Notes: generated by a model not told the origin, from the letters alone. A stretch of 64,000 bases of DNA from Methanobrevibacter sp. (GCA_017460025.1 JAFUBV010000001.1:39444-103443), one strand, 5' to 3'; numbered from the stretch's first letter, positions 3,681-51,100 are shown. Made by a program: numbers and translations.

Positions 3681-3872
3681 ATGGTAAATTTTCTTACAGT
3701 ACGGATAGATGATAAAAAATGTGAACACTGCCTAACATGTGTAAGTGAATGCCCAACAGGAGCATTAACATATTATAAAGCAGGTTTCATGCATTCTGCA
3801 TATGAATGTAGCTACTGTGAATCCTGCATGATGGTATGTCCAAATGACGCAATAAACATACTAGATATGTGA
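3681..3872 (+). CDS. 2[4Fe-4S] ferredoxin
   Basis: Two CxxCxxCxxxCP motifs (CEHCLTCVSECP, CSYCESCMMVCP). Confidence 0.9.
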   Translation: MVNFLTVRIDDKKCEHCLTCVSECPTGALTYYKAGFMHSAYECSYCESCMMVCPNDAINILDM

Positions 3873-7770: not shown

Positions 7771-8919
7771 TTAATTTTTACGAAATTTAGCTAGAATATC
7801 ATCATCGGATTTGTTTTCCAATGCTTCGATTCTCTGTAGGATTGTATCATATTTATTTTGCTGTTCTTTTATTGTTTCTTGTAATTCTCTATTATCGTTT
7901 TCTAATTTTAAAAATTCTTGGCTTTTAACTGTTATTTTTTCAACATCTTTATTCAATAATAATGATGGTAGATGATTCACATATTCATTGAGGAGATCTT
8001 CTGTACGTAACATAAAATAGGATTCATCAGTTATTGTTTTTGATTTACCTTGTAAATCATTGATTAGGTCTCTGCTCATTCCATCTCCTGCTAATGTCGA
8101 TGCATGATATTTCCTCAGCATGTGGCTTCTGAATCTACGATAGTGTCCTATTTTACCTAAGTTTAGTTTATCGTTGATTTCTTCAAAGGATAATGTGAAT
8201 GTTGTGGGGTTTATTTTGAATAATTTGCTTTCTAATGTTATGTTGTCAGTTCTATCTTGTAAGTAATGGTTGATTGCAGTTACACTTTCAGGGCTGCTGA
8301 AGGTAGTGTAATATTTATCTGTTTTGACACGTTTAATTTGCCAAGTGGGTACTACATCACTTGTTTGGTTTAATGTTTCTATTATTTTATAGATATTATT
8401 ATTGTTGTGGTAATTTTTTGTTGCTTTTATATAATCTTTAATGGTTAAACTTAATGTTTCTGCACGTGCAGAACCTGAACTAGACATGAATAGTATGATG
8501 GCTTTCATTACTGGTGATGCTATTTCAATTGCAGAGCGGAGTACCTCCTTGTCAGGCAAGTCTTCTGGACGGATAGGTTCTGGCCTGTTAACATTCTTCT
8601 CATTAAAATTAGGTAAGTTATGGATTTCAATATCAAAGTGACGGTAGAATGCTTGTATTTTGTTGAAGCGTTCACGTGCTGTTTTTTGGGAATGTTTGTC
8701 GTATAAATATACTCGGTATTCTGTTAATCTTTTTTTTAATGTTCGATGTTTCCATCGTATTCCGTTTTCTTCTTCGTTTTCTGCTTCATCAAGTAATTGT
8801 TGTAGTGTCATATTATAATATGAAGTGTATTCGTTCAAGTATATTTTGTATGCTCTGGTGGTGGTGTCTTGTATGTTTCGGGTTTTCTGGAGGTAGTTTA
8901 TTAGGTCTGTGTCTTTCAT
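7771..8919 (-). CDS. Tyrosine recombinase/integrase 1 with C-terminal coiled coil
   Basis: SSGSARAETL (catalytic R), HMLRKY (HxxR), LQGK...Y. Confidence 0.9.
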   Translation of the reverse strand: MKDTDLINYLQKTRNIQDTTTRAYKIYLNEYTSYYNMTLQQLLDEAENEEENGIRWKHRTLKKRLTEYRVYLYDKHSQKTARERFNKIQAFYRHFDIEIHNLPNFNEKNVNRPEPIRPEDLPDKEVLRSAIEIASPVMKAIILFMSSSGSARAETLSLTIKDYIKATKNYHNNNNIYKIIETLNQTSDVVPTWQIKRVKTDKYYTTFSSPESVTAINHYLQDRTDNITLESKLFKINPTTFTLSFEEINDKLNLGKIGHYRRFRSHMLRKYHASTLAGDGMSRDLINDLQGKSKTITDESYFMLRTEDLLNEYVNHLPSLLLNKDVEKITVKSQEFLKLENDNRELQETIKEQQNKYDTILQRIEALENKSDDDILAKFRKN

Positions 8920-8986
8920 TTTTTATCATCTCAAAAATATTTCTCATTATTCTTATGTATATGAGGTATATTTTTATTATGATTTA

Positions 8987-9213
8987 AAAGTATTGGAATA
9001 CTTTAAGGTGTTTGCACTAAACTTATTTTATTATTCCAATACTTATGTGGTGTTTGTTATTGTTTTTAGTGTGTTTGTGTGTAGTATGGTTTTGTTCACT
9101 GAATGTGAACATTTTATAACATCGTTATACTATAATATTATAAAAAAAATAACCTCATAAAAAAAATAATTATGAGGTTAACCTGCCTAAAAGGCAAAAG
9201 AAGTATTCCAATA
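8987..9213. repeat. Three TATTGGAATA sites (one direct, two inverted) between the recombinase genes; candidate att/operator/invertible element
   Basis: 13-bp IRs 8988-9000/9032-9044 and 8991-9003/9201-9213; palindrome AAAGTATT-GG-AATACTTT at 8987-9004. Confidence 0.55.
9142..9180 (-). terminator. Hairpin plus T-tract downstream of recombinase 2
   Basis: Perfect 11-bp IR TAACCTCATAA (9150-9160)/TTATGAGGTTA (9170-9180), followed by a T run on the minus strand. Confidence 0.55.
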
Positions 9214-9249
9214 AAAATAATATAATCATCATCATATAAAAAACTTAAC

Positions 9250-10287
9250 TCATAAAATATTCAACTCCTTACCCGACAAAAAAACATTCACAACAACAGT
9301 AAACTCCTGCTTAACCACATCAGAACTACCAACACTCCCCACCATCACATTACCCATAACATCCATATAAATCTTCTTCAAACGCTTAGGATTCGTCTTA
9401 ATATAAGTCTCATGAACAACATTCTTCGACCTACCCTGCAACGAATCAACATACTCAGCAGTCAAACCAATATTAGAAGCATGAAACTTACGCAAAGTAT
9501 GACTCCTAAAAAAACGATAATTACCTTTAAAACCCCAACCCATCTTATCATTAATCTCCTGAAACCTCAACAACAAATTAGAAGCACTAAAATCAAACAA
9601 CTTATCAGACAATTTCAAATCCTTCCTCGTTTTCAAATACTTCACTATATACAAAGAAGCTTCAGGACTACAAAAAGTATAATAATACTTATCAGTTTTA
9701 ATACGACGTAAATAAAAAGTAGGAACAACATTCTTCTTACGTTCTAATGTATCAAGAATATATTCTAAACTACCACCATTATGATAATCCCTAGTACCAT
9801 TAACAAACTGCTCAACAGTTAAAGACAAAGTCTCCTCCTTGACAGTACCCGAAGATGACATGAACAAAATAACAGCCTTCAAATCAATACTGCAAATATC
9901 TAAAGCCTGACGAATATGAAACTTAGTTGGAAGATCTAAATAATTAATCTCATAATCTTTATTATATTTAGCAACAGGAAGATTAGGAACTTCAATCTCA
10001 AAATGATTATAAACTGTTTTAACCTTCTGCAAATATGTTTTCAAAGTATTAGGAGACATATCACTATCAAAAAGATAATTACGATAATCCAACAATCTTT
10101 TCTTAAGTTTCCTATCTTTCAAAGGAACCTTCTGTTTTTCTTCAAAATTAGCTTCATCTATTAATTCACTTAAAGATTTCTTCTGCACTTTCAAATAATG
10201 TTGGATGGCAGATTGATAACCTTTTCGTGTGCTTTCTTTGATATGTCGTTCTTTGCAGAACTTTTCGAATAATTTTTCATTATACAT
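9250..10287 (-). CDS. Tyrosine recombinase 2 (paralogue of recombinase 1; first catalytic Arg replaced by Lys)
   Basis: SSGTVKEETL, KTDKYYYTF, HTLRKF, LQGRSK...Y; aligns along its length with 7771-8919. Confidence 0.88.
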   Translation of the reverse strand: MYNEKLFEKFCKERHIKESTRKGYQSAIQHYLKVQKKSLSELIDEANFEEKQKVPLKDRKLKKRLLDYRNYLFDSDMSPNTLKTYLQKVKTVYNHFEIEVPNLPVAKYNKDYEINYLDLPTKFHIRQALDICSIDLKAVILFMSSSGTVKEETLSLTVEQFVNGTRDYHNGGSLEYILDTLERKKNVVPTFYLRRIKTDKYYYTFCSPEASLYIVKYLKTRKDLKLSDKLFDFSASNLLLRFQEINDKMGWGFKGNYRFFRSHTLRKFHASNIGLTAEYVDSLQGRSKNVVHETYIKTNPKRLKKIYMDVMGNVMVGSVGSSDVVKQEFTVVVNVFLSGKELNIL

Positions 10288-43408: not shown

Positions 43409-44545
43409 TTATAATAATGATTTAAGGAAATCTTCTTTAGTTTGTTTAGCAACTAACATTTCAGCTGCTTCACGACTGGTGAATTCAGTTTTTTCCGCAT
43501 CATTATCTTCATCGTTTTTATCGATTTCTTCTTCATTGTATTGGAAATCTGGTTGACGATTTTTATTTAAATCTTTGAATAATTTATCCATTTGTTCAGA
43601 TACAGCTTTATCCACAGTATCTTTAACTGTTTCAGTTACATCAGTTTCAGAAATAGATTTAATTTCAGATTTCACAGATTCTAATTCTGTGTGGAATAAA
43701 CCTTTGATATCTTCAAGGGTTAAGGATTTTTCTTCCTCTTCTTCCTCTTCTTCTTCGTTGGTTTCGGCAGGTTTGCCTTCACCTTCATCTTCATCGTCTT
43801 CTTCGGATGCGGATTTAATAGCATCTTTAACAATTTTCTCTAATTGTTTAGATACTGCTTGAACAGTATCATTTAATAATTCTTCTTTCAAAGAAACTGA
43901 ATTTTCATTAATTAAATCAATTACATCTTGTTTAGTTAATGTTTCTACTTCTTCGTTATTTTTTTGAGTCATATTTTGCACCTCATTTTTCATAATAGTA
44001 TAACATGCACCAGTTAAGCAAGTGGATTTCACTAATCCTTTACTGGTAGTGATGGTTCCGTAAGTATCCCAATTTGCAGGCATACTTGTTAAGCTTATTT
44101 CTCTTAAGGTGATGTCTTTTATCTCCCACCCACCATCTTCTAATTGGGTGTGTTCAGTTACTCTCCCTCCAATTGACAATCCTAGTTTAACACCGATGTC
44201 TAACATTTCTTTGATGTCTTGAGCATATTTTGGTAAGATTGTAGCTTTGATACGTAAACTGTACGCATCTGTATCTACTACATGTGTGATTGCTCCAATG
44301 ACACCATCGAATAATCCATACCAGTGATCACCATGCAAGTTTAAACCTGCTTGTAATTGTCTTTTCATGGATTCAATACATGTTGGTGTTACAATGTCTA
44401 ATTGAAGGTCTTTGTTGGTTGTTGAAGCTATTCCTTCTATGGTTAATGAACCGTCCTCATTGAGAGTATAACTTTTTGTGGTTTCTGGATAGATTTGAGG
44501 ACGTGCGTAGAGTTGGAATTGCTTTTCTAATACTTCAGTTGACAT
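43409..44545 (-). CDS. Prohead protease with C-terminal scaffold region
   Basis: IEGIAST..DL..D, H, GLSIGG, LREISLT..PAN; acidic coiled-coil tail. Confidence 0.88.
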   Translation of the reverse strand: MSTEVLEKQFQLYARPQIYPETTKSYTLNEDGSLTIEGIASTTNKDLQLDIVTPTCIESMKRQLQAGLNLHGDHWYGLFDGVIGAITHVVDTDAYSLRIKATILPKYAQDIKEMLDIGVKLGLSIGGRVTEHTQLEDGGWEIKDITLREISLTSMPANWDTYGTITTSKGLVKSTCLTGACYTIMKNEVQNMTQKNNEEVETLTKQDVIDLINENSVSLKEELLNDTVQAVSKQLEKIVKDAIKSASEEDDEDEGEGKPAETNEEEEEEEEEKSLTLEDIKGLFHTELESVKSEIKSISETDVTETVKDTVDKAVSEQMDKLFKDLNKNRQPDFQYNEEEIDKNDEDNDAEKTEFTSREAAEMLVAKQTKEDFLKSLL

Positions 44546-44613
44546 GAATATTTATTCCACAATCTATTTTTTTTGAATTATTTTTACATACTATAAAATT
44601 TTTTTTTTTAGAA

Positions 44614-44670
44614 GTGGGTTTCAGGATTTAAACCTGACTATTATGTAAAAAATGATTCTTTTTAACCCAC
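44614..44670 (-). ncRNA. tRNA-like element (7-bp acceptor stem plus T-arm; 26-nt linker)
   Basis: Minus strand: GTGGGTT-N26-TCAGG TTTAAAT CCTGA-AACCCAC. Confidence 0.6.
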
Positions 44671-45169
44671 ATTTTTTCAAATTAATCCTTATTTTTTTTT
44701 AGTTTTTACATGGGAGGACCACCTCTCCATGAAAAACTAAAAAGAAAGAGAGTACATTTAAGGGTAAAAAAATGTGAAATGAATTATGTTACCCCTTTAT
44801 GTAAATGAGAGAAAAAAAAATAAATTAGGAAATTTTTTTTTGAATGTTTTGTCATTATTTTTGAACAATGGTGATTTAAAAAAAAATAAAAGAAGTTACG
44901 GCTGGCTGAATTTTAATTATATTTTTTTTTAAACATTATTTTTTTTTCTCTCAATGATTTTTACATTATCTAAAGATTCATTTCATTACCCTTTTTCTTT
45001 TGTCGACGTGTTTTTATTGTATTTTTTCCCCTGAAAATGGAAAAAAAATACTGGCCTAATATTTTTTTTTTAAACAAAGGTGAAATATAGGTGTTTTTTT
45101 TTTAGAGACGAACGCATATTTTTTCCCTATTTTTTTTGGAGCGAAAAAATGTTTTTTTTGAGAACTGTA

Positions 45170-45209
45170 GGTGGAACAGGGAATCGAACCCTGCAAAGAT
45201 TATTCCACC
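45170..45209 (-). ncRNA. 40-nt tRNA minihelix (acceptor stem plus canonical T-arm; no D or anticodon arm)
   Basis: Minus strand: GGTGGAA-TAATCTTTG-CAGGG TTCGATT CCCTG-TTCCACC. Confidence 0.72.
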
Positions 45210-45524
45210 ATCCATTTAAAATAAGAATAAAAAAAATATGAGAGGAATATGAAAAATAAAAATTGGAAATTTAGAAACGTGAGGATAAAAAAAATTTCCT
45301 AATTATTTTTAGATCATCCAATAGCTACTCTCCCATATTTTAATTTTTTTATTCTTATTTTCTTTTAACCAAAATAAAGGAAGTTATTTACTTTTCGTTG
45401 TTTTTTTTTAGAACCAGAGCAAAGTAGTTATATATTTTTTTTTCTTTGTTTTTGATAAGGGAGAAAAAGAATTTGAGTGTATGTTTAAAAAAAAAATAAG
45501 CTAGAAAAAACTCCCAAGAAAAAA

Positions 45525-46469
45525 TTAGCTTTCAGGTATGTTGGGATTGAATGCTTGTGCCCAATCTTCCAAAGGTGTTAAATTAACAACATAATGCACC
45601 TCATCCTCAGGCTTAACCTTAGACTCCCAAACAGACAAATAAGTACATCTACAATTCGGATGAAACGGTGGATACTTCCCACCTTTAATCAAATCTTGGA
45701 TATTATGAACAAGTTCTTCACCACGATTCTCAAAGGTAATCTTATCATTTTTATTGAATTCATAAGCATATTGCAAACAAGTAGTGCAGACATGTTCATC
45801 TTCAGCAGTTAACAACTTAACCTGAGTGTAGCCTTCATTCACATAAGACTGTAAAATACCAGTATTTTGAATACGTGAAGTTTCAGTCCTGGCAATCATA
45901 GTTGCCCTTTGACGTGGAGTGAAAGTACTTCCAGGCAACTGGGTTATACCTAACTCTAACAGTTTAGGTGCAAGGCTTAAAGGGTTTTCACCTTCAATGG
46001 CTGCACGAGTCATACGATTTTTAACAGCACCACGCAAATCATCATTAAGGTTTTGTATTAAACCATAATTATAATTCCTTGCGAAAGCGAAAGCTAATCT
46101 GTCAGTGTCAGTGTATCGTAAGTGTTCAGCTATGTTACTGTATCCTTTGCTTTTACCATAACTGTAGATTTCATTTAACAATCCATCTACTGTATCGTAA
46201 GTACCTGCAAGGATAGTATCCCAATCATTCTCCAATGACTCCCATATCTCCTGTTGATAATAAGCTTCATTGAAAAAGAATTCTTTAGCTTCATCACTAT
46301 CAATCCAGTTAATACTGGCCTGTAAAACATCATCGATTTGTTTGGATAGTAATTTATAATATTTCATTACTTGGATATTATCACGTAGACTTTTTTCTGT
46401 GAACTCTTCTTCGAGTCCTAAGTCTTCAATTAATAATTGATTTGTTAATATCCTTTCAGCTGATATCAT
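45525..46469 (-). CDS. Head morphogenesis protein (MuF/SPP1 gp7-like)
   Basis: RATMIARTETSR, D..VC..C, PPFHPNCRC. Confidence 0.9.
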   Translation of the reverse strand: MISAERILTNQLLIEDLGLEEEFTEKSLRDNIQVMKYYKLLSKQIDDVLQASINWIDSDEAKEFFFNEAYYQQEIWESLENDWDTILAGTYDTVDGLLNEIYSYGKSKGYSNIAEHLRYTDTDRLAFAFARNYNYGLIQNLNDDLRGAVKNRMTRAAIEGENPLSLAPKLLELGITQLPGSTFTPRQRATMIARTETSRIQNTGILQSYVNEGYTQVKLLTAEDEHVCTTCLQYAYEFNKNDKITFENRGEELVHNIQDLIKGGKYPPFHPNCRCTYLSVWESKVKPEDEVHYVVNLTPLEDWAQAFNPNIPES

Positions 46470-47791
46470 AAATTATACTCCTTACCAAGACGCTCCATGA
46501 GTAATGCTTTCTTTAAAGCTTTAGCTTCTAAATCCACTTTGGGATTGATTAGTTTTGCATCTTCAACATTATCAATTGTTGGTGCTAATGCAAATTGTGA
46601 ATAGTTCATGGGTACATTTCCCCAATCAACTGGATCTAAACCATAATTTGACCTGACTTCATTGATGTATGTTGAGCCGTTACGTAATTGTTTGTCTTCA
46701 ATTTCTGCACGGTTTAATTTGTTCTCTGCATCCTCACGATTAAATGTGAATACTTCACTGAAACCAGAACGACCAAGTGATTTGTTGAATTGGTCCTCTA
46801 TCACACGGGCTGTACCATTTAATACTTTTTGGAAATCTTTATTCTGTGATTCACCCGTACCTGAACCGAGACTGGCGGTTTCAATAATATCCACTTTGTG
46901 TGGTGGAACACCGAAGTTAACAAGAATCACGTCACGACTATATTTCATTAAGTCCAGGAATTCCATATCCCTGTTACTGTTGGATGTTCTTAGGTAGTTG
47001 GCTGCTTGTAGGATTAATGTTCCTTTTTTGTTTTTTTCTTCACGTAATCTTTTACGGTTTGCTTCAACAGCTACTTGTCCTAAGTCTTTGTCGAATGTGA
47101 TTATTCCTCTCGGGTCTAATCCACTGTTTTTGAATATATCTTTATTGTGGTCTTTACCGAGAATTTCTAATGTAATATCCGCAGATATGGAATCAATTAA
47201 ACTTGTACCCCATCTACTACCTTTTAATTCAATCTTCGGTTCATAAATATGAATTAACTGTTCAGGTTCATAACGGATTTTTGTATTACGTATACCCCAT
47301 TGACTAGTCTCTTGATCCCAACCAATCAACTCAGTAGGTATAAACTTAAACCCGTTAGGCACACGATTAAAAACTCTGTCATGATTAACTTCAATGAAAG
47401 CATCACCAGTAATCTTCCATGATGGCAATATCTGCTTGACTAGGCTACTGAATGTAGCTTCATCATATAATCCTCCAGGATGTCTGAAGAGATTATTCAA
47501 ATAATTAACACGACCAAAATTAACATAATCATTGTATGGATTGTTAATATTGAATCCATTGTTTAATAATTCATCACAGTAGACTCCGCAGCATCTGCGA
47601 ACCCATACATTGTAATGGTATGCGTCGTAGTATGTTTGGAGTAAGCTTATGCTTTTATCATGATCTGGTAATGCCCATTTGTATTCTCTGAAGTACTGCT
47701 CTAGTAAGCTACTGTATTCAGGTTTTCTTAGTGATGGTATAATATTTGTGAATGAGCTTATTGTTGATTTTACACGGTTAGTTATATTCAT
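46466..47791 (-). CDS. Portal protein
   Basis: TGDAFIE, RWGTS, FKNSG.P.GI, DMEF, FGVPP, INEVR...GLDP. Confidence 0.92.
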   Translation of the reverse strand: MNITNRVKSTISSFTNIIPSLRKPEYSSLLEQYFREYKWALPDHDKSISLLQTYYDAYHYNVWVRRCCGVYCDELLNNGFNINNPYNDYVNFGRVNYLNNLFRHPGGLYDEATFSSLVKQILPSWKITGDAFIEVNHDRVFNRVPNGFKFIPTELIGWDQETSQWGIRNTKIRYEPEQLIHIYEPKIELKGSRWGTSLIDSISADITLEILGKDHNKDIFKNSGLDPRGIITFDKDLGQVAVEANRKRLREEKNKKGTLILQAANYLRTSNSNRDMEFLDLMKYSRDVILVNFGVPPHKVDIIETASLGSGTGESQNKDFQKVLNGTARVIEDQFNKSLGRSGFSEVFTFNREDAENKLNRAEIEDKQLRNGSTYINEVRSNYGLDPVDWGNVPMNYSQFALAPTIDNVEDAKLINPKVDLEAKALKKALLMERLGKEYNL

Positions 47792-47839
47792 TATTTATTA
47801 CCATCCTATCTAAATTTTTAATTTTTTAATTTTATTTTT

Positions 47840-49249
47840 TTATAAGTCTATAATCTCGAAAACAACTTCTCCAATATAATTTTTCTTCAAATAATTGAAT
47901 GCATGAGCTGTAGCATCGACAATATCATCATGTTGCCCGTTTGGAAATGCTTTGAATTCGTTGATGAATATTTGTCTTAATTTATCATCAACAATATCAA
48001 CATAGACATGTCCATCATAAATATAATTCTTTAATGGTGTTGCACGGTCAGCTTTACTATTGTTTGGTACAGCTACACCTCGTTCAACAAAGTAACCCAT
48101 TAAATCTTCTTCCCAGGTATCGTATAATATTTTTCCTGCTGCGGCCACACCAGTTTCAATGATACTGATGTTATCATGACCGTCACGTATTACTGTGTCT
48201 TTAACGATGTGTGCGGTGTCTTTTCCGAATTGGCCGTATAGGAAATCTGTTATTAGGATGCTTTTACCATCTTCTAATAAGTATACGGGTACTCCTGCGG
48301 TGGAGTCGTTTTTACCTGGGTCTGATGATGCTATATCGTATCCTCTTACTTGTTGTAGTGTTCCCATTTCTGGACGGTACCAATGAATATTTTTCAATTC
48401 GAAGAAGTCCGAGGTGTCATCTATAGGTTTTTGCTGATATATTGATTGGAACACTCTTTCTCCAACAGATTCTCTTTTCTTTTCTAATTTTTCTATTGGA
48501 TATCTTTCAGGCCATAATGGTGTTCCATCTTCTTTTATGGCTGAAAATTCTATGAAGTAATAATCTTCTTTTCGTTCTCTTTTGAATACTCCTTGCAGGT
48601 CTCCACTTGACCAGCGGGTATGGAGTAAAACAAGTTTGGTTTGTGGTTCGATACGTTGTTCGATGATTGTGTCAAACCAGTCTACTTTTTTCTGTAGTAA
48701 AGTTGGTGTTATATCATCAAAGCCTTTGTAAGGGTCGTCTATGATGATGTAGTCTGCATCTTGACCAGTGATAGATCCACTTGCACCAACTAATCTGATA
48801 CTCCCTTGATATAATGTACCTTCACGGTCACAGAACATTAAATGGTCTTTAGCATGTTTAACATCTGATAAATAAACATTGAAGTATTCACCATAACGGC
48901 CAACAGCTTCTTTTAATTGTATACCAAATTTTTCAGATAATGTGGCTGCATTGTTAACAATTAAAATGTTTAAATCAGGGTCTTGGAATATTAACCATAA
49001 TGGGAACGTTAAAGTCACCATTGAAGACTTTGAATGTCTTGGTGGCATTGCAACACATAAACGCTCAATATCACCTAAAAACACCATCGTCAATAATTCA
49101 GATAACTCATTAATATGATCAGCATCAACAATATCTTTATATCTTGATGCAACAAAAGTCATGTAGAATTCATAGAGATCATTTAATATTTCCTCCCATT
49201 CTTCAATGGTCAGATTTGGATTTAGATTTTCTAAATTTTCGCTTTGCAT
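47840..49249 (-). CDS. terL: Terminase large subunit
   Basis: Walker A PPRHSKS, Walker B YIIIDD, GYDIA, FPNGQHDDIVDA. Confidence 0.95.
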   Translation of the reverse strand: MQSENLENLNPNLTIEEWEEILNDLYEFYMTFVASRYKDIVDADHINELSELLTMVFLGDIERLCVAMPPRHSKSSMVTLTFPLWLIFQDPDLNILIVNNAATLSEKFGIQLKEAVGRYGEYFNVYLSDVKHAKDHLMFCDREGTLYQGSIRLVGASGSITGQDADYIIIDDPYKGFDDITPTLLQKKVDWFDTIIEQRIEPQTKLVLLHTRWSSGDLQGVFKRERKEDYYFIEFSAIKEDGTPLWPERYPIEKLEKKRESVGERVFQSIYQQKPIDDTSDFFELKNIHWYRPEMGTLQQVRGYDIASSDPGKNDSTAGVPVYLLEDGKSILITDFLYGQFGKDTAHIVKDTVIRDGHDNISIIETGVAAAGKILYDTWEEDLMGYFVERGVAVPNNSKADRATPLKNYIYDGHVYVDIVDDKLRQIFINEFKAFPNGQHDDIVDATAHAFNYLKKNYIGEVVFEIIDL

Positions 49250-49826
49250 TTAATCTCTCACGAATCCTATTTGTATCAAATAATTGGCCAAGGTCATTCA
49301 TATTATTCTCAACATTAACTTCCACATTAGACTCATTCTTCTTGAAATAATCATTATACAATTTATTCGCATCTAATGCTAAACGTGCAACATCTTTAGA
49401 TGTCACATTACTATCTTCATCTTCAGCATCACGGCATGCTTGCTCGAACTTTTCAGGAAATTGACTTGCAACTTTAGCAACACCTTCCATGTTTTCAGCT
49501 ATAGTTCCCGCAACAATATTCGGAATATTATTAATAGCTTCAATTTTATCCGCTTGTGCTTGAACTTTCTGTTTAACTTCAGGAGGGTCCTCTTTCGGTT
49601 TTCGTCTTTCCGCTCTCCTATTTAATTCGGCTTCGACTTTACTTTCCATGGATATTTTATCATTATAATATCTGGCTATGGCTGCATGTGAAATCTTTTC
49701 ATTAAATTCATTTTCCAACCATCTAGAAATACTTCTTGCACTTTGGCCTTCAGATAATCGAAGCACTATTTCTTCAAAATGAGGAGACTTTTCAACTTTG
49801 CTTTTCCTGACCAAGTTCATCACCAT
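49203..49826 (-). CDS. terS: Terminase small subunit (putative)
   Basis: N-terminal HTH-like region; overlaps the terL start. Confidence 0.65.
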   Translation of the reverse strand: MVMNLVRKSKVEKSPHFEEIVLRLSEGQSARSISRWLENEFNEKISHAAIARYYNDKISMESKVEAELNRRAERRKPKEDPPEVKQKVQAQADKIEAINNIPNIVAGTIAENMEGVAKVASQFPEKFEQACRDAEDEDSNVTSKDVARLALDANKLYNDYFKKNESNVEVNVENNMNDLGQLFDTNRIRERLNAKRKFRKSKSKSDH

Positions 49827-49860
49827 GTGATAGTTAATATTTCAGATTTTTTGTAATTCT

Positions 49861-49898
49861 TGTAATATTACATTGTAACGTTACACTGTAATGTTACA
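49861..49898. repeat. Three tandem 12-bp palindromes TGTAAYRTTACA (13-bp period) upstream of terS
   Basis: TGTAATATTACA 49861, TGTAACGTTACA 49874, TGTAATGTTACA 49887. Confidence 0.8.
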
Positions 49899-49908
49899 CC
49901 ATAATGTG

Positions 49909-50304
49909 TTAATGTACCATGTTGAAAAATACATTCACAATAATTGTAATAGCAGTCAATACTGCACCAATAATTAGTATTTGATTATTAAATCTTCTTT
50001 GTTCATCAGCTTCTTTTTCTTTAATACTATCCTTTAAATTCTGATAATCAGTTTCAATTGCTTTTAATCGTAATTCTAACTCCACATCTCCTTTCTGTGA
50101 ATCTATTTTGAAATCATTGAAACCTTGAATTAATATGTCAAGTTTATTATCCATGCTATTGATTTTATCATTCAATTCATCAATCCTTTTTTCTTTATAA
50201 TCTGCACGGGCTTCTAATTCGGCGGTTTTCCGACTGATGCCTTGTATTTGTTCTTCATGTATACAATTATGTTCAATTGACATCATCTTCACCCACTGCA
50301 TCAT
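49909..50304 (-). CDS. Coiled-coil protein with C-terminal TM helix (possibly lysis-related)
   Basis: Heptads, then ILIIGAVLTAITIIVNVFF. Confidence 0.6.
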   Translation of the reverse strand: MMQWVKMMSIEHNCIHEEQIQGISRKTAELEARADYKEKRIDELNDKINSMDNKLDILIQGFNDFKIDSQKGDVELELRLKAIETDYQNLKDSIKEKEADEQRRFNNQILIIGAVLTAITIIVNVFFNMVH

Positions 50305-50581
50305 TTGTATTTAATGAAGAATATTCTGCAGCAGGATCAATGGTTTGATTATTTTCAGCTTCATAGTTTATTACAGCTAATTTTTCTGCTCTTTCAACAC
50401 GTGTGTTTTCTGTTGATTGAACAACTACATAACCTGCGATTAAAACTATTATTGGTGAAAGATAAGCTAATTCTTTAGGTAATATTTCTACTAAAGCATC
50501 TTTTCCAATATATGTTATTAGTCCTGCTAGGAACACTATTGCGTTGGCTGCTTTGGATTTGATTTTATATGATTGTACCAT
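50273..50581 (-). CDS. Holin-like two-TM protein
   Basis: Two hydrophobic helices and a polar C-terminal tail. Confidence 0.55.
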   Translation of the reverse strand: MVQSYKIKSKAANAIVFLAGLITYIGKDALVEILPKELAYLSPIIVLIAGYVVVQSTENTRVERAEKLAVINYEAENNQTIDPAAEYSSLNTNDAVGEDDVN

Positions 50582-50628
50582 TTAATTAGTCTCCAAATTA
50601 TTTTTTTTATACTTTTAAAAAGAATTAT

Positions 50629-50873
50629 TGGTGATGTCCGGATTTGCACCGGAGAATAATATTTTCAAAAAAAAATATATTATAAAAAAAAATTTTTTAT
50701 TATTCCTTTTTTTATTACCCTTTATGAAAAGAATTACACACCATTTTTTTTGTTTTTAAATTATTTTTTTGAAAATTAACAAATGTCTGAAAAATATTAA
50801 AATTTAAACAAGAACCAAGAAAATAAAATAAAAATATATTTTTTTTATGTTTTTTAATTTTTTTTACATCACC
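50629..50873 (-). ncRNA. tRNA-like element with ~210-nt AT-rich insert
   Basis: Minus strand: GGTGATG-TA...-TCCGG TGCAAAT CCGGA-CATCACC-A. Confidence 0.55.
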
Positions 50874-50875
50874 AT

Positions 50876-51100
50876 TCAGATTAGGATGTGATAGGGATAT
50901 TTTGCTTTTCGTAATCCTGTGTATTCTAATGATGCTCTTGTCACTAATCCACATACCGTACAGTAGTCTAGGCAGTGTTCTTCATCATATGTTACAGTAT
51001 TGGTTTTGCATTCTGGACATTTGTTGAAGTTGATTTTTGCTTTTTTTATTTTCGCCCTTTTCCTGGGCTTGTAGGTTAATGGTTTTTTATCGTGACACAT
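50876..51100 (-). CDS. Stand-alone TFIIB/TFB-type zinc-ribbon protein
   Basis: CPEC....VTYD......YCTVCGLV. Confidence 0.75.
   Translation of the reverse strand: MCHDKKPLTYKPRKRAKIKKAKINFNKCPECKTNTVTYDEEHCLDYCTVCGLVTRASLEYTGLRKAKYPYHILI

Follow-up and report, generated by a model that had tools for sequence, protein, structure and literature searches.

In plant mitochondria, t-elements mark both the 5′ and the 3′ ends of mRNAs (Forner et al. 2007, PMC1920247). They are tRNA-like folds that do not decode and have an acceptor stem and a T arm, and in plants they were found by the T-arm motif GGTTCGATTCC, a match to GGTTCRANYCC (PMC1920247). In the archaeon Haloferax volcanii, a t-element lies upstream of the 5S rRNA, and a t-element has been used to release crRNA (PMC4326828). 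In the vertebrate, nuclear mascRNA/MEN-beta family (RF01684), an RNase P cut forms the 3′ end of the long RNA upstream. A tRNA-like gene of the halovirus HF2 has been proposed to be a tRNA remnant or an attP site (PMC8707807).

Here I describe a 77-kb tailed virus of the rumen and gut methanogen Methanobrevibacter that carries three conserved RNA elements, (i) to (iii), which resemble the upper half of a tRNA in shape and adjoin its head and lysis-like genes. All coordinates refer to the window, a 64,000-nt stretch of Methanobrevibacter sp. DNA (GCA_017460025.1 JAFUBV010000001.1:39444-103443). The initial annotation had appealed to t-elements as a precedent, which is real, Archaea included (PMC4326828, PMC1920247). 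Like t-elements, the viral elements have a non-decoding acceptor stem and T arm and lie between genes, shortly before what would be mRNA 5′ ends or shortly after 3′ ends; the archaeal host, like H. volcanii, has RNase P and tRNase Z. Unlike the known t-elements, they are viral, and their cleavage is a proposal of this study. They are also more reduced, (i) having no more than a 9-nt linker where the D and anticodon arms would be; (ii) and (iii) hold variable inserts of 26–222 nt, and the non-canonical T-loops UUUAAAU and UGCAAAU occur in most copies of (ii) and in (iii).

Results

All three elements lie on the minus strand, which is the coding strand, and upon re-reading their sequences agree exactly with the initial annotation. 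Each stacks a 7-bp acceptor-like stem on a 5-bp stem whose loop is T-loop-like and 7 nt long, giving 12 perfect Watson-Crick pairs; the D and anticodon arms, and with them any decoding capacity, are absent. Element (i) (45170–45209) is a 40-nt minihelix composed of the 5′ acceptor strand GGTGGAA (45209–45203), the linker with a conserved core ATCTT(T/G)G, the T arm CAGGG-TTCGATT-CCCTG (45193–45177), and the 3′ acceptor strand TTCCACC (45176–45170), followed by a discriminator T at 45169. Its MFE and centroid folds are both the minihelix (z −2.2). Element (ii) (44614–44670) has the acceptor strands GTGGGTT and AACCCAC, a discriminator T, and the T arm TCAGG-TTTAAAT-CCTGA. Its 26-nt insert is variable and forms an A5/T6 hairpin in the clade of the window virus. 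Element (iii) (50630–50873) has the 5′ acceptor strand GGTGATG (50873–50867), an A+T-rich insert of 213 nt, the T arm TCCGG-TGCAAAT-CCGGA (50653–50637), and the 3′ strand CATCACC (50636–50630) with a discriminator A; a 79-aa ORF overlapping it is probably spurious. The t-element motif GGTTCRANYCC is matched by (i) (GGTTCGATTCC) and not by (iii) (GGTGCAAATCC). The corresponding sequence of (ii) is GGTTTAAATCC in the window, while the canonical GGTTCGATTCC or GGTTCAAACCC is found in L003, L034, L065, and L004, with the canonical T-loop TTCGATT in the first three of these relatives.

The genes which the initial annotation had guessed around the elements were confirmed. A Mu-F-like minor head protein gene (45525–46469, minus strand; PF04233, phrog_115) is the upstream neighbour of the gap holding (i) and (ii), and it immediately precedes (i) in several relatives. 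The gap is followed by a prohead serine protease gene of the S78 type (43409–44545, minus strand; PF04586, phrog_80), which (ii) always precedes. In the window, (ii) ends 68 nt before the protease ATG and (iii) ends 48 nt before the next ATG, both as annotated. The latter opens the gene of a 102-aa protein (50273–50581, minus strand) with two hydrophobic segments and an acidic tail, a putative holin-like protein which has homologues and no Pfam or PHROG family match. Directly upstream of (iii), whose first residue is 3 nt past the stop codon, lies the gene of a 74-aa protein with a TFIIB-type zinc ribbon (50876–51100, minus strand; PF08271, E 8e-5, below the curated cut-off). The same order is found in L009 and L010, and the zinc-ribbon gene is also present in L011, which has no (iii).

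Would such shapes arise by chance? A bare descriptor (7-bp and 5-bp stems, 7-nt loop, N≤250) is common, giving 18 matches against 8.3 in shuffles. G+C-rich matches with N≤30 numbered 2, against 0.017 expected. When T-loop hallmarks were also required, exactly three matches remained in 154 kb of virus strand, all on one strand. The same stricter descriptor gave 22 matches in 2.23 Mb of host contigs, about 17 of them real or intron-bearing tRNAs and the other five A+T-rich, from which about 0.17 matches would be expected for the virus. Elements (i) and (ii) lie well outside what chance would produce. With its 213-nt insert, (iii) by itself exceeds chance only marginally, and its case rests on its conservation in two relatives.

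The covariation analysis proposed in the initial annotation was performed, and compensatory pairs were found in (i) and (ii). Element (i) is kept in seven distinct Methanobrevibacter viruses or proviruses (model R1, 58–74 bits) and (ii) in 15, with inserts of 26–77 nt; (ii) is missing from close relatives of the virus (L029/L041, vir080). The stems of (i) are 97.6% paired (at most 60% in slid controls), with four pairs changed on both sides, and those of (ii) are 94.4% paired (at most 58%), with three such pairs. Both the acceptor and the T stems show compensatory changes, among relatives with 34–89% protease identity. The T stem of (i) occurs as CAGGG, TCAGG, TTAGG, CAAGG, CTAGG, and CGAGG, each with its matching partner, and that of (ii) as TCAGG, TAGGG, TATGG, and TTGGG; acceptor pair 6 of (ii) is U-A in some copies and A-U in others. 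Loss of the outer T-stem pair (AAGGG/CCCTA) goes with lengthening of the acceptor stem to 8 bp, so that the 12-bp stack is retained. In every instance listed, G52-C62, G53-C61, U54, and A58 are invariant, which points to tRNA mimicry rather than a generic hairpin. A T at position −1 is found in 25 of 25 instances. The protease start is 30–68 nt downstream of (ii) in every relative having the element. Selection on shape rather than decay, as initially suggested, is supported by this covariation in (i) and (ii). Element (iii) is limited to three close relatives, namely the window virus, L009 (222-nt insert), and L010 (146-nt insert), and was not found in G004:C61. Its T stem shows one compensatory change (TCAGG/CCTGA in L010), and no covariation was found in the closing stem among the three. 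In each of the three, both the MFE and the centroid fold contain the long-range closing stem; the inserts (146–222 nt) are not conserved in sequence and contain many T-runs. Element (iii) is the weaker case.

Two G·U pairs, in (i) of L033 and in (ii) of L039, would be A·C on the opposite strand. Since G·U pairs occur on the sense strand only, (i) and (ii) appear to act as sense-strand RNA. The alternative that the elements are DNA-level inverted repeats, serving as a viral-protein site or a cruciform (a regulatory site, origin, or packaging signal), is very unlikely in this light. The gap is indeed A+T-rich and rich in inverted repeats, and TATA-like sequences lie within the inserts of (ii) and (iii). 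However, the gap's long A/T inverted repeats lack conservation, the spacing of the 7-mer arms of (ii) (26–77 nt) is too variable for a dimeric protein site, the cumulative GC skew has no inflection at the gap, and a tRNA-type T-loop sequence has no rationale at the DNA level. On the reading favoured below, the elements are sense-strand RNA mimicking the acceptor/T-arm half of a tRNA, with a 12-bp coaxial stack and a T-loop.

Neither a tRNA nor a tmRNA was found in the window by ARAGORN or by Rfam at gathering thresholds. For canonical tRNA (RF00005), ARAGORN reported 0 genes and Rfam no match even at E≤10. For tmRNA (RF00023), ARAGORN reported none, and the Rfam match was confined to the 17-nt T arm of (i) (11.4 bits). 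Element (iii) does resemble the tRNA-like domain of tmRNA in that an acceptor stem and a T arm close a long internal insert, but it has no tag reading frame, pseudoknots, or G3:U70, and the insert is unconserved and rich in T-runs. To my knowledge, Archaea lack trans-translation. The best partial Rfam match of (i) was mascRNA-menRNA (RF01684; 24.4 bits, below the gathering score of 42.5). The alignment covers the acceptor stem and T arm over their full length, although the internal arms are deleted in (i), and homology with this vertebrate nuclear family is not implied.

It was assessed whether the elements could derive from former tRNA genes or be attP sites through which the virus integrates into a host tRNA gene. 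The virus encodes several tyrosine recombinases, and the 3′ half of (i) resembles a genuine tRNA 3′ end. However, the 3′ halves of the elements match no tRNA or other host locus (the host MAG; 24 genomes for (i), 102 for (ii) and (iii)); the sole matches among same-genus genomes sit upstream of the protease genes of related viruses. In proviruses integrated in host contigs of 160–268 kb, the elements keep an internal position and are not at the provirus junctions. More than 35 kb separates the elements from the recombinase genes (7771–10287 in the window; L051:8061-10095), and the 5′ acceptor strand, which an attP does not need, is present and covarying. A full tRNA is found at these sites in no relative (ARAGORN, 32 related loci), so the condition that the initial annotation had set for its own refutation, full tRNAs in relatives, was not borne out. 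This reading is thus already largely refuted, and I regard it as barely credible. The halovirus HF2 case is similar in that a tRNA-like sequence that does not fold normally occurs in an archaeal tailed virus. It differs in that here no host tRNA matches, no integrase adjoins the elements, and three different elements keep both acceptor strands, which covary.

The gap that separates the Mu-F-like gene from the protease gene (44546–45524, minus strand) has no ORF, is 979 nt long with 24% G+C, and is poorly conserved apart from (i), (ii), a hairpin between them, and a few short islands. The hairpin (44699–44740, minus strand) is bulged; its core GGAGAGGTGGTCCTCCC (44728–44712) is invariant, its loop is Shine-Dalgarno-like, and in L003 and L004 its lower stem has a different sequence yet remains paired. 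On its sense strand, the gap has 11 runs of at least six T and 16 runs of at least six A. Such T-runs are about 55-fold denser here (11 in 979 nt) than in the late coding sequence (7 in 34 kb), where they are strongly avoided. Two T9 runs (50692–50684 and 50675–50667) also lie within (iii), flanking the TATA-like ATAATATA. Because of these runs, transcripts probably stop and restart in the gap, and it is doubtful that one transcript spans the Mu-F-like gene, (i), and (ii), or both strands of the closing stem of (iii). A conserved T6 run (45144–45149, minus strand), part of the motif ACATTTTTTC(G/A)CTCC and located about 20 nt past (i), is a candidate archaeal terminator of a short (i) transcript; the L014/L019 clade has GAGCCGTTTTT(TT)CTGCG at this position.

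Since T-run terminators crowd the gaps, a serious rival is that the elements, at least (i), are stand-alone genes of tRNA-like small RNAs, each with its own promoter and ending at the next T-run. The precursor would be trimmed in the manner of a tRNA, perhaps with CCA added, and the stable minihelix of 40–60 nt that results would work in trans, whether by regulating, by titrating an enzyme, or as a decoy. I consider this possible, if somewhat unlikely. The terminator-like T-run 20–30 nt past (i) is conserved in both clades, and T-runs are dense both ahead of (i) and in the stretch from (i) to (ii). L018-type proviruses have a divergent upstream gene; there, TATATAAA stops 25 nt short of G1 of (i), a spacing that suits initiation at or just before G1. 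The T(−1)/G(+1) junction is also compatible with an archaeal initiator, and the conserved linker of (i) suggests more than a shape signal. Against this, (ii) holds its distance to the protease start, and A-runs rather than terminators follow it in most relatives, although L031, L035, and L042 also have T6–T9 between (ii) and the protease start. No CCA is encoded in the elements, and a search of the virus for a CCA-adding enzyme (PF01743) found none. The discriminator base differs among instances (U/A/G/C), which speaks against a conserved aminoacylation identity. No exact TATA consensus is present on the sense strand of either gap, and promoter calls are unreliable in such A+T-rich DNA. A decoy against host defence, which the initial annotation had offered, is unsupported; the elements have no anticodon loop and a variable discriminator.

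Discussion

The reading I favour, with roughly an even chance of being right, is that the elements are t-element-like RNase P/tRNase Z signals that define the ends of late transcripts. From their structure, conservation, strand, and position, and from the enzymes found in the host, I infer that they are transcribed within these messages and cleaved. An archaeal RNase P RNA was found in the host MAG (202.6 bits), and all 12 good genomes from the host genus have an RNase Z that scores above the cut-off. Host RNase P would cut at the invariant U(−1)/G(+1) junction and host tRNase Z past the discriminator base. Cleavage at (ii) would create the 5′ end of the downstream late message, that of the protease/capsid operon, and the T-arm side of (iii) would probably do likewise for the operon of the small membrane proteins and terminase; the cut message would retain an unstructured, A-rich leader. 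At (i), RNase P cleavage would form a 3′ end after the Mu-F-like gene, as proposed by analogy with mascRNA/MEN-beta, or release a short RNA. Host tRNA genes are followed by T-runs, whereas the trailers of the elements are A-rich, so transcription is expected to continue past (ii) and (iii) into the next gene. In L034/L065 the start of a divergent gene is only about 75 nt upstream, so that (ii) almost certainly lies in the protease leader. Counting against t-elements are the T-runs described above, including those between (ii) and the protease start in some relatives, and the close relatives that have no (ii). In addition, tRNase Z cleavage would give the message a 5′-monophosphate, and this might make the message less stable instead of protecting it (aRNase J).

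In another reading, the minihelix would stay on the message as an uncleaved 5′ leader, blocking 5′-to-3′ exonuclease or aiding translation, its tRNA likeness being incidental or only recruiting a tRNA-binding protein. The probable 5′ ends of late operons carry (ii) and the T arm of (iii), the TATA-like sequence between the two T9 runs is about 27 nt upstream of that T arm, and the predicted helices are stable (z about −2.2). But a generic stabiliser needs no invariant U54, A58, and G53-C61, exact 12-bp stack, or U(−1), and no gene lies downstream of (i). I consider an uncleaved leader improbable.

In the boldest form of the t-element reading, (iii) would be a split-level device, whose closing stem forms only if the transcript extends beyond the T-runs of the insert. 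Processing would then report, or couple to, termination read-through from the zinc-ribbon regulator gene into the lysis/packaging operon. Tentatively, and at somewhat less than even confidence, I propose that a family of Methanobrevibacter tailed viruses punctuates its late expression via host RNase P and tRNase Z, using minimal tRNA mimics. If true, viral t-elements would be new to Archaea, with a role so far undescribed for any archaeal virus.

Genome context of the elements

The elements lie on contig C273, which belongs to an archaeal Methanobrevibacter MAG (86% complete, with archaeal tRNAs). The window corresponds to C273:39444-103443. Over its 130,604 bp, the contig sequence recurs identically at intervals of 77,099 bp, so that it holds about 1.7 copies of a virus genome. 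This makes C273 an assembly concatemer of one complete virus genome of 77.1 kb, circular or terminally redundant, binned with the MAG, and the element copies that occur at C273:7.5 kb and at 84.6 kb reflect this repeat rather than paralogues. The related loci are from rumen and gut Methanobrevibacter.

Around the elements, the minus strand carries a head module of a tailed virus. Its first listed gene, for thymidylate synthase, is followed by a gene for a TFIIB-type zinc ribbon protein of 74 aa (50876-51100; PF08271, E 8e-5, below the cut-off) and the gap with element (iii) (50582-50875). Next come two genes for small proteins of membrane or coiled-coil type, then those of a 207-aa protein, the large terminase, the portal, and the Mu-F-like head protein (45525-46469). 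An ORF-free gap of 979 nt holding (i) and (ii) (44546-45524) separates the Mu-F-like gene from those of the S78 prohead protease (43409-44545) and the SU10-type major capsid protein. The zinc ribbon gene is kept directly upstream of (iii) and is also present in one relative lacking (iii); its product may be a viral protein that regulates transcription initiation in the host. Elsewhere, two segments (window 7771-10287 (-) and L051:8061-10095 (+)) encode three tyrosine recombinases, a fourth ORF matching only the SAM-like N-terminal domain, two N6/N4 DNA methylases, one N-6 methylase, PCNA, an ERCC4 nuclease, and several HNH endonucleases, a large replication and recombination module for a 77-kb virus.

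Three armless tRNA-like elements

The initial annotation described three minus-strand elements, (i) at 45209->45170, (ii) at 44670->44614, and (iii) at 50873->50630, each with a 7-bp acceptor-like stem stacked on a 5-bp T stem with a 7-nt loop, and their sequences were confirmed exactly. The bare descriptor (7 bp, a spacer of up to 250 nt, 5 bp, and a 7-nt loop) is not rare, giving 18 matches versus 8.3 in dinucleotide shuffles, while G+C-rich matches with a short spacer were observed twice versus 0.017 expected. With the T-loop hallmarks added (NNNGG-T[TG][CT]RA-NN-CCNNN), there are exactly three matches in the virus, all on the coding strand. This stricter descriptor has 22 matches on 2.23 Mb of host contigs, about 17 of which are true or intron-bearing tRNAs; the remaining five, all A+T-rich, correspond to about 0.17 chance matches for a virus-sized genome. 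ARAGORN and Rfam at gathering thresholds had no match at the elements. At E<=10, the best Rfam match of (i) is mascRNA-menRNA (24.4 bits against a threshold of 42.5 bits), aligned end-to-end with the inner arms deleted. In RNAfold, the minihelix is both the MFE and the centroid structure for (i), (ii), and three relatives (stability score z of about -2.2).

Two further minihelix-like matches, both with A+T-rich acceptor stems, lie elsewhere in the MAG. One is in C285 (G000:C285:2078-2121 (+)), with the sequence GTAATTA-N13-TCCGG-TTTAACT-CCGGG-TAATTAC, and the other, GAAATTT-N23-TCAGG-TGCAATT-CCTGC-AAATTTT, is in C274 (G000:C274 (-), 2476-2529 on the reverse complement). They may be chance matches or further elements.

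Conservation and covariation in relatives

With the protease as anchor, about 20 distinct viruses or proviruses with 34-89% protease identity were collected, and five more were added from a pattern search across the genus. Across these relatives, (i) and (ii) are conserved with compensatory changes. Element (ii) is kept in 15 distinct genomes and always ends 30-68 nt 5′ of the protease ATG, while its insert (26-77 nt) is not conserved in sequence. Its T stem may be TCAGG, TAGGG, TATGG, or TTGGG, matched each time by the partner strand, and acceptor pair 6 is U-A or A-U. Paired cells make up 94.4% of the (ii) alignment versus at most 58% with the partner slid. Where the outer T-stem pair has been lost (AAGGG/CCCTA), the acceptor helix is one pair longer, so that the 12-bp stack is kept. 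Element (i) was found in seven distinct genomes (58-74 bits with its search model R1), with six different T stems, one acceptor-stem change from A-U to G-C, and a short linker whose sequence ATCTT(T/G)G is kept. Here, the paired cells amount to 97.6% versus at most 60% in the slid controls, and four pairs are changed on both sides. G52-C62, G53-C61, U54, and A58 are invariant throughout the instances, and a T directly precedes G1 in all 25 cases. Two G·U pairs, in (i) of L033 and in (ii) of L039, are compatible with the sense strand only; since such pairs occur on one strand only, the spacing of the arms is variable, and the loop sequence is of tRNA type, it is unlikely that the elements are protein-binding sites at the DNA level.

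Element (iii) is shared with just the two nearest related viruses, whose inserts measure 222 and 146 nt, and is missing from the next relative (G004:C61). There is one compensatory T-stem change, and none in the closing 7-mers, which are invariant; for each of the three viruses, both the MFE and the centroid fold contain the closing stem. In IMG/VR, the pattern of (i) matched the same virus family only, while the T arm and 3′ strand of (iii) matched its own virus family and unrelated phage tRNA arrays. Two jumbo-phage contigs there have tRNA-like elements inside tRNA gene arrays that ARAGORN does not call (L071:4434-4454 (-) and L076:3428-3448 (-)); both share the T-loop TGCAAAT and the 3′ strand CATCACC with (iii), and L076 has GGTGATG 59 nt upstream.

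Are the elements decayed tRNAs? The initial annotation had favored selection on shape over decay, and the covarying stems agree with this. Full tRNAs were sought at the element sites of 32 related loci with ARAGORN and none was found, and the armless form, with its covarying stems, persists in relatives of as little as 40% protease identity. Neither was a tmRNA found by ARAGORN. An attP identity was also rejected. The MAG itself has no tRNA or other locus carrying these 3′ halves; in same-genus genomes (24 for (i), 102 for (ii) and (iii)), the matches are all found 5′ of viral protease genes. Moreover, the elements stay internal in proviruses within host contigs of 160-268 kb, and the recombinase genes are far from them.

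Small ORFs starting from a conserved ATG before each element were discarded, as the frames are not conserved; in the window, the fourth codon of the frame at (i) is a stop. A replication origin in the 979-nt gap was likewise discarded, as the GC skew has no inflection and the long A/T inverted repeats are not conserved. An antisense role of (i) against the protease ribosome-binding site (repeat D9) was rejected because the complementarity is lost in the L014 and L018 clades. The 18 nt 5′ of the protease start (AAATAGATTGTGGAATAA, sense) match the 5′ part of (i) (AAATGGATGGTGGAATAA) at 16 of 18 positions (window 44552-44569 and 45200-45217 (+)), a likeness absent in more distant clades.

Other conserved structures near the elements

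A hairpin at 44699-44740 (-) has the invariant core GGAGAGGTGGTCCTCCC, also found in the related loci L003 (~3795-3830) and L004 (~3815-3850). Its loop is nearly the full Shine-Dalgarno sequence, paired with a CCUCC strand, and its lower stem covaries. In other clades, this site is occupied by another conserved hairpin, TTGGAGTA-AGTGGCTAAAC-TACTCCAA (L029/L041), with similar ones in L039 and L066. Two short G+C islands are conserved just past the Mu-F stop codon, TGGGAGTTTT and, 50-130 nt later, TTTTCTCCCTTATCAAAAA (window 45440-45520 (-); L003 3060-3140; L004 3320-3480); judging from the sequences, their GGGAG and CTCCC could pair. The hairpin GTTTTAAG(A/G)CTGGTGTCTAAAAC, about 70-85 nt downstream of (i), is conserved in L014, L018, L019, and L032, in clades of 40-48% protease identity, and is not present in the window's clade.

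Possible roles in late gene expression

The part of a tRNA generally taken to be recognized by RNase P, by tRNase Z, and by the CCA-adding enzyme is the acceptor stem together with the T arm on which it stacks. An RNase P RNA is present in the host MAG, and RNase Z is encoded in all 12 good genus genomes checked. A CCA-adding enzyme of the virus itself was also sought. PF01743 is absent from the virus. PF12627 is the RNA-binding region of poly(A) polymerases and CCA enzymes, and its match in a 124-aa ORF (L051:12561-12935 (+), equal to C273:38860-39234) covers 30 residues at 22.7 bits; this is too slight and probably not meaningful, and the catalytic head domain was not found anywhere in the virus genome.

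In plant mitochondria, mRNA ends are marked by t-elements, the 5′ ends through RNase Z and the 3′ ends through RNase P (PMC1920247). By analogy, the viral elements may be t-element-like signals that define late-message ends via host RNase P and tRNase Z, a reading whose chances seem about even. Since a divergent gene starts only about 75 nt upstream of (ii) in L034 and L065, (ii) almost certainly lies in the protease leader. Directly 3′ of the viral elements stands N73-YCY-A7-11, while host tRNA genes are followed by T-runs at once; with such A-rich flanks and no immediate T-run, transcription should run on into the next gene. Element (ii), and probably also the T-arm side of (iii), would then set the 5′ end of late messages via tRNase Z and/or RNase P. 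Where (i) adjoins the Mu-F stop codon (L014, L019, and L032), it would set a 3′ end or free a short RNA.

A run of six or more T residues is an archaeal terminator signal. On the sense strand, there are seven such runs in 34 kb of late coding sequence (window 14461-50581 (-)) versus 11 in the 979-nt gap, three just past the Mu-F stop codon and five between (i) and (ii), while A-runs of this length are common inside late genes (42). The pattern suggests that archaeal terminators are selected against within genes and that the gap is a termination zone. It fits at least as well with short, separately initiated transcripts, among which (i) would be a tRNA-like small RNA in its own right, with (ii) and the T arm of (iii) as the first structures of new messages. 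Such transcripts are also favored by a conserved T-run 20-30 nt downstream of (i), by two T9 runs in the (iii) insert on either side of a TATA-like ATAATATA about 27 nt before the T arm, and by a TATATAAA box ending 25 nt 5′ of G1 of (i) in L018-type proviruses, where the upstream gene is divergent. No exact TATA consensus exists on the sense strand of either gap, and looser matches are everywhere at 24% G+C. Both strands of the (iii) closing stem may rarely be on one RNA. Because these T-runs and boxes suit short transcripts too, I hold the processing of late messages by tRNA-maturation enzymes with only half confidence.

Significance

The tRNA-maturation machinery is also known to act on mammalian long non-coding RNAs. 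To my knowledge, almost nothing is known about late gene expression in methanogen viruses. Full-text literature searches gave no account of tRNA-like processing elements for viruses of Methanobrevibacter or for archaeal viruses in general; the archaeal-virus cases were one decoding viral tRNA and one attP-type tRNA-like gene. In vir080, the one annotated public relative examined, (ii) is missing and no feature of this kind is annotated. By analogy, the elements would be t-elements, but viral, archaeal, and more reduced than the known ones, with some bearing inserts. As ARAGORN and Rfam miss them, they offer a search handle for annotation. In Haloferax, t-elements are already used to free defined RNAs (PMC4326828), and their small size makes the viral elements a candidate tool for RNA release in methanogens as well. 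The use of tRNA maturation to shape messages is known in organelles (PMC1920247) and in one archaeal rRNA operon (PMC4326828). If the tRNA mimics before the protease/capsid operon do act in this way, these viruses would borrow the tRNA-maturation machinery of their hosts to shape their messages.
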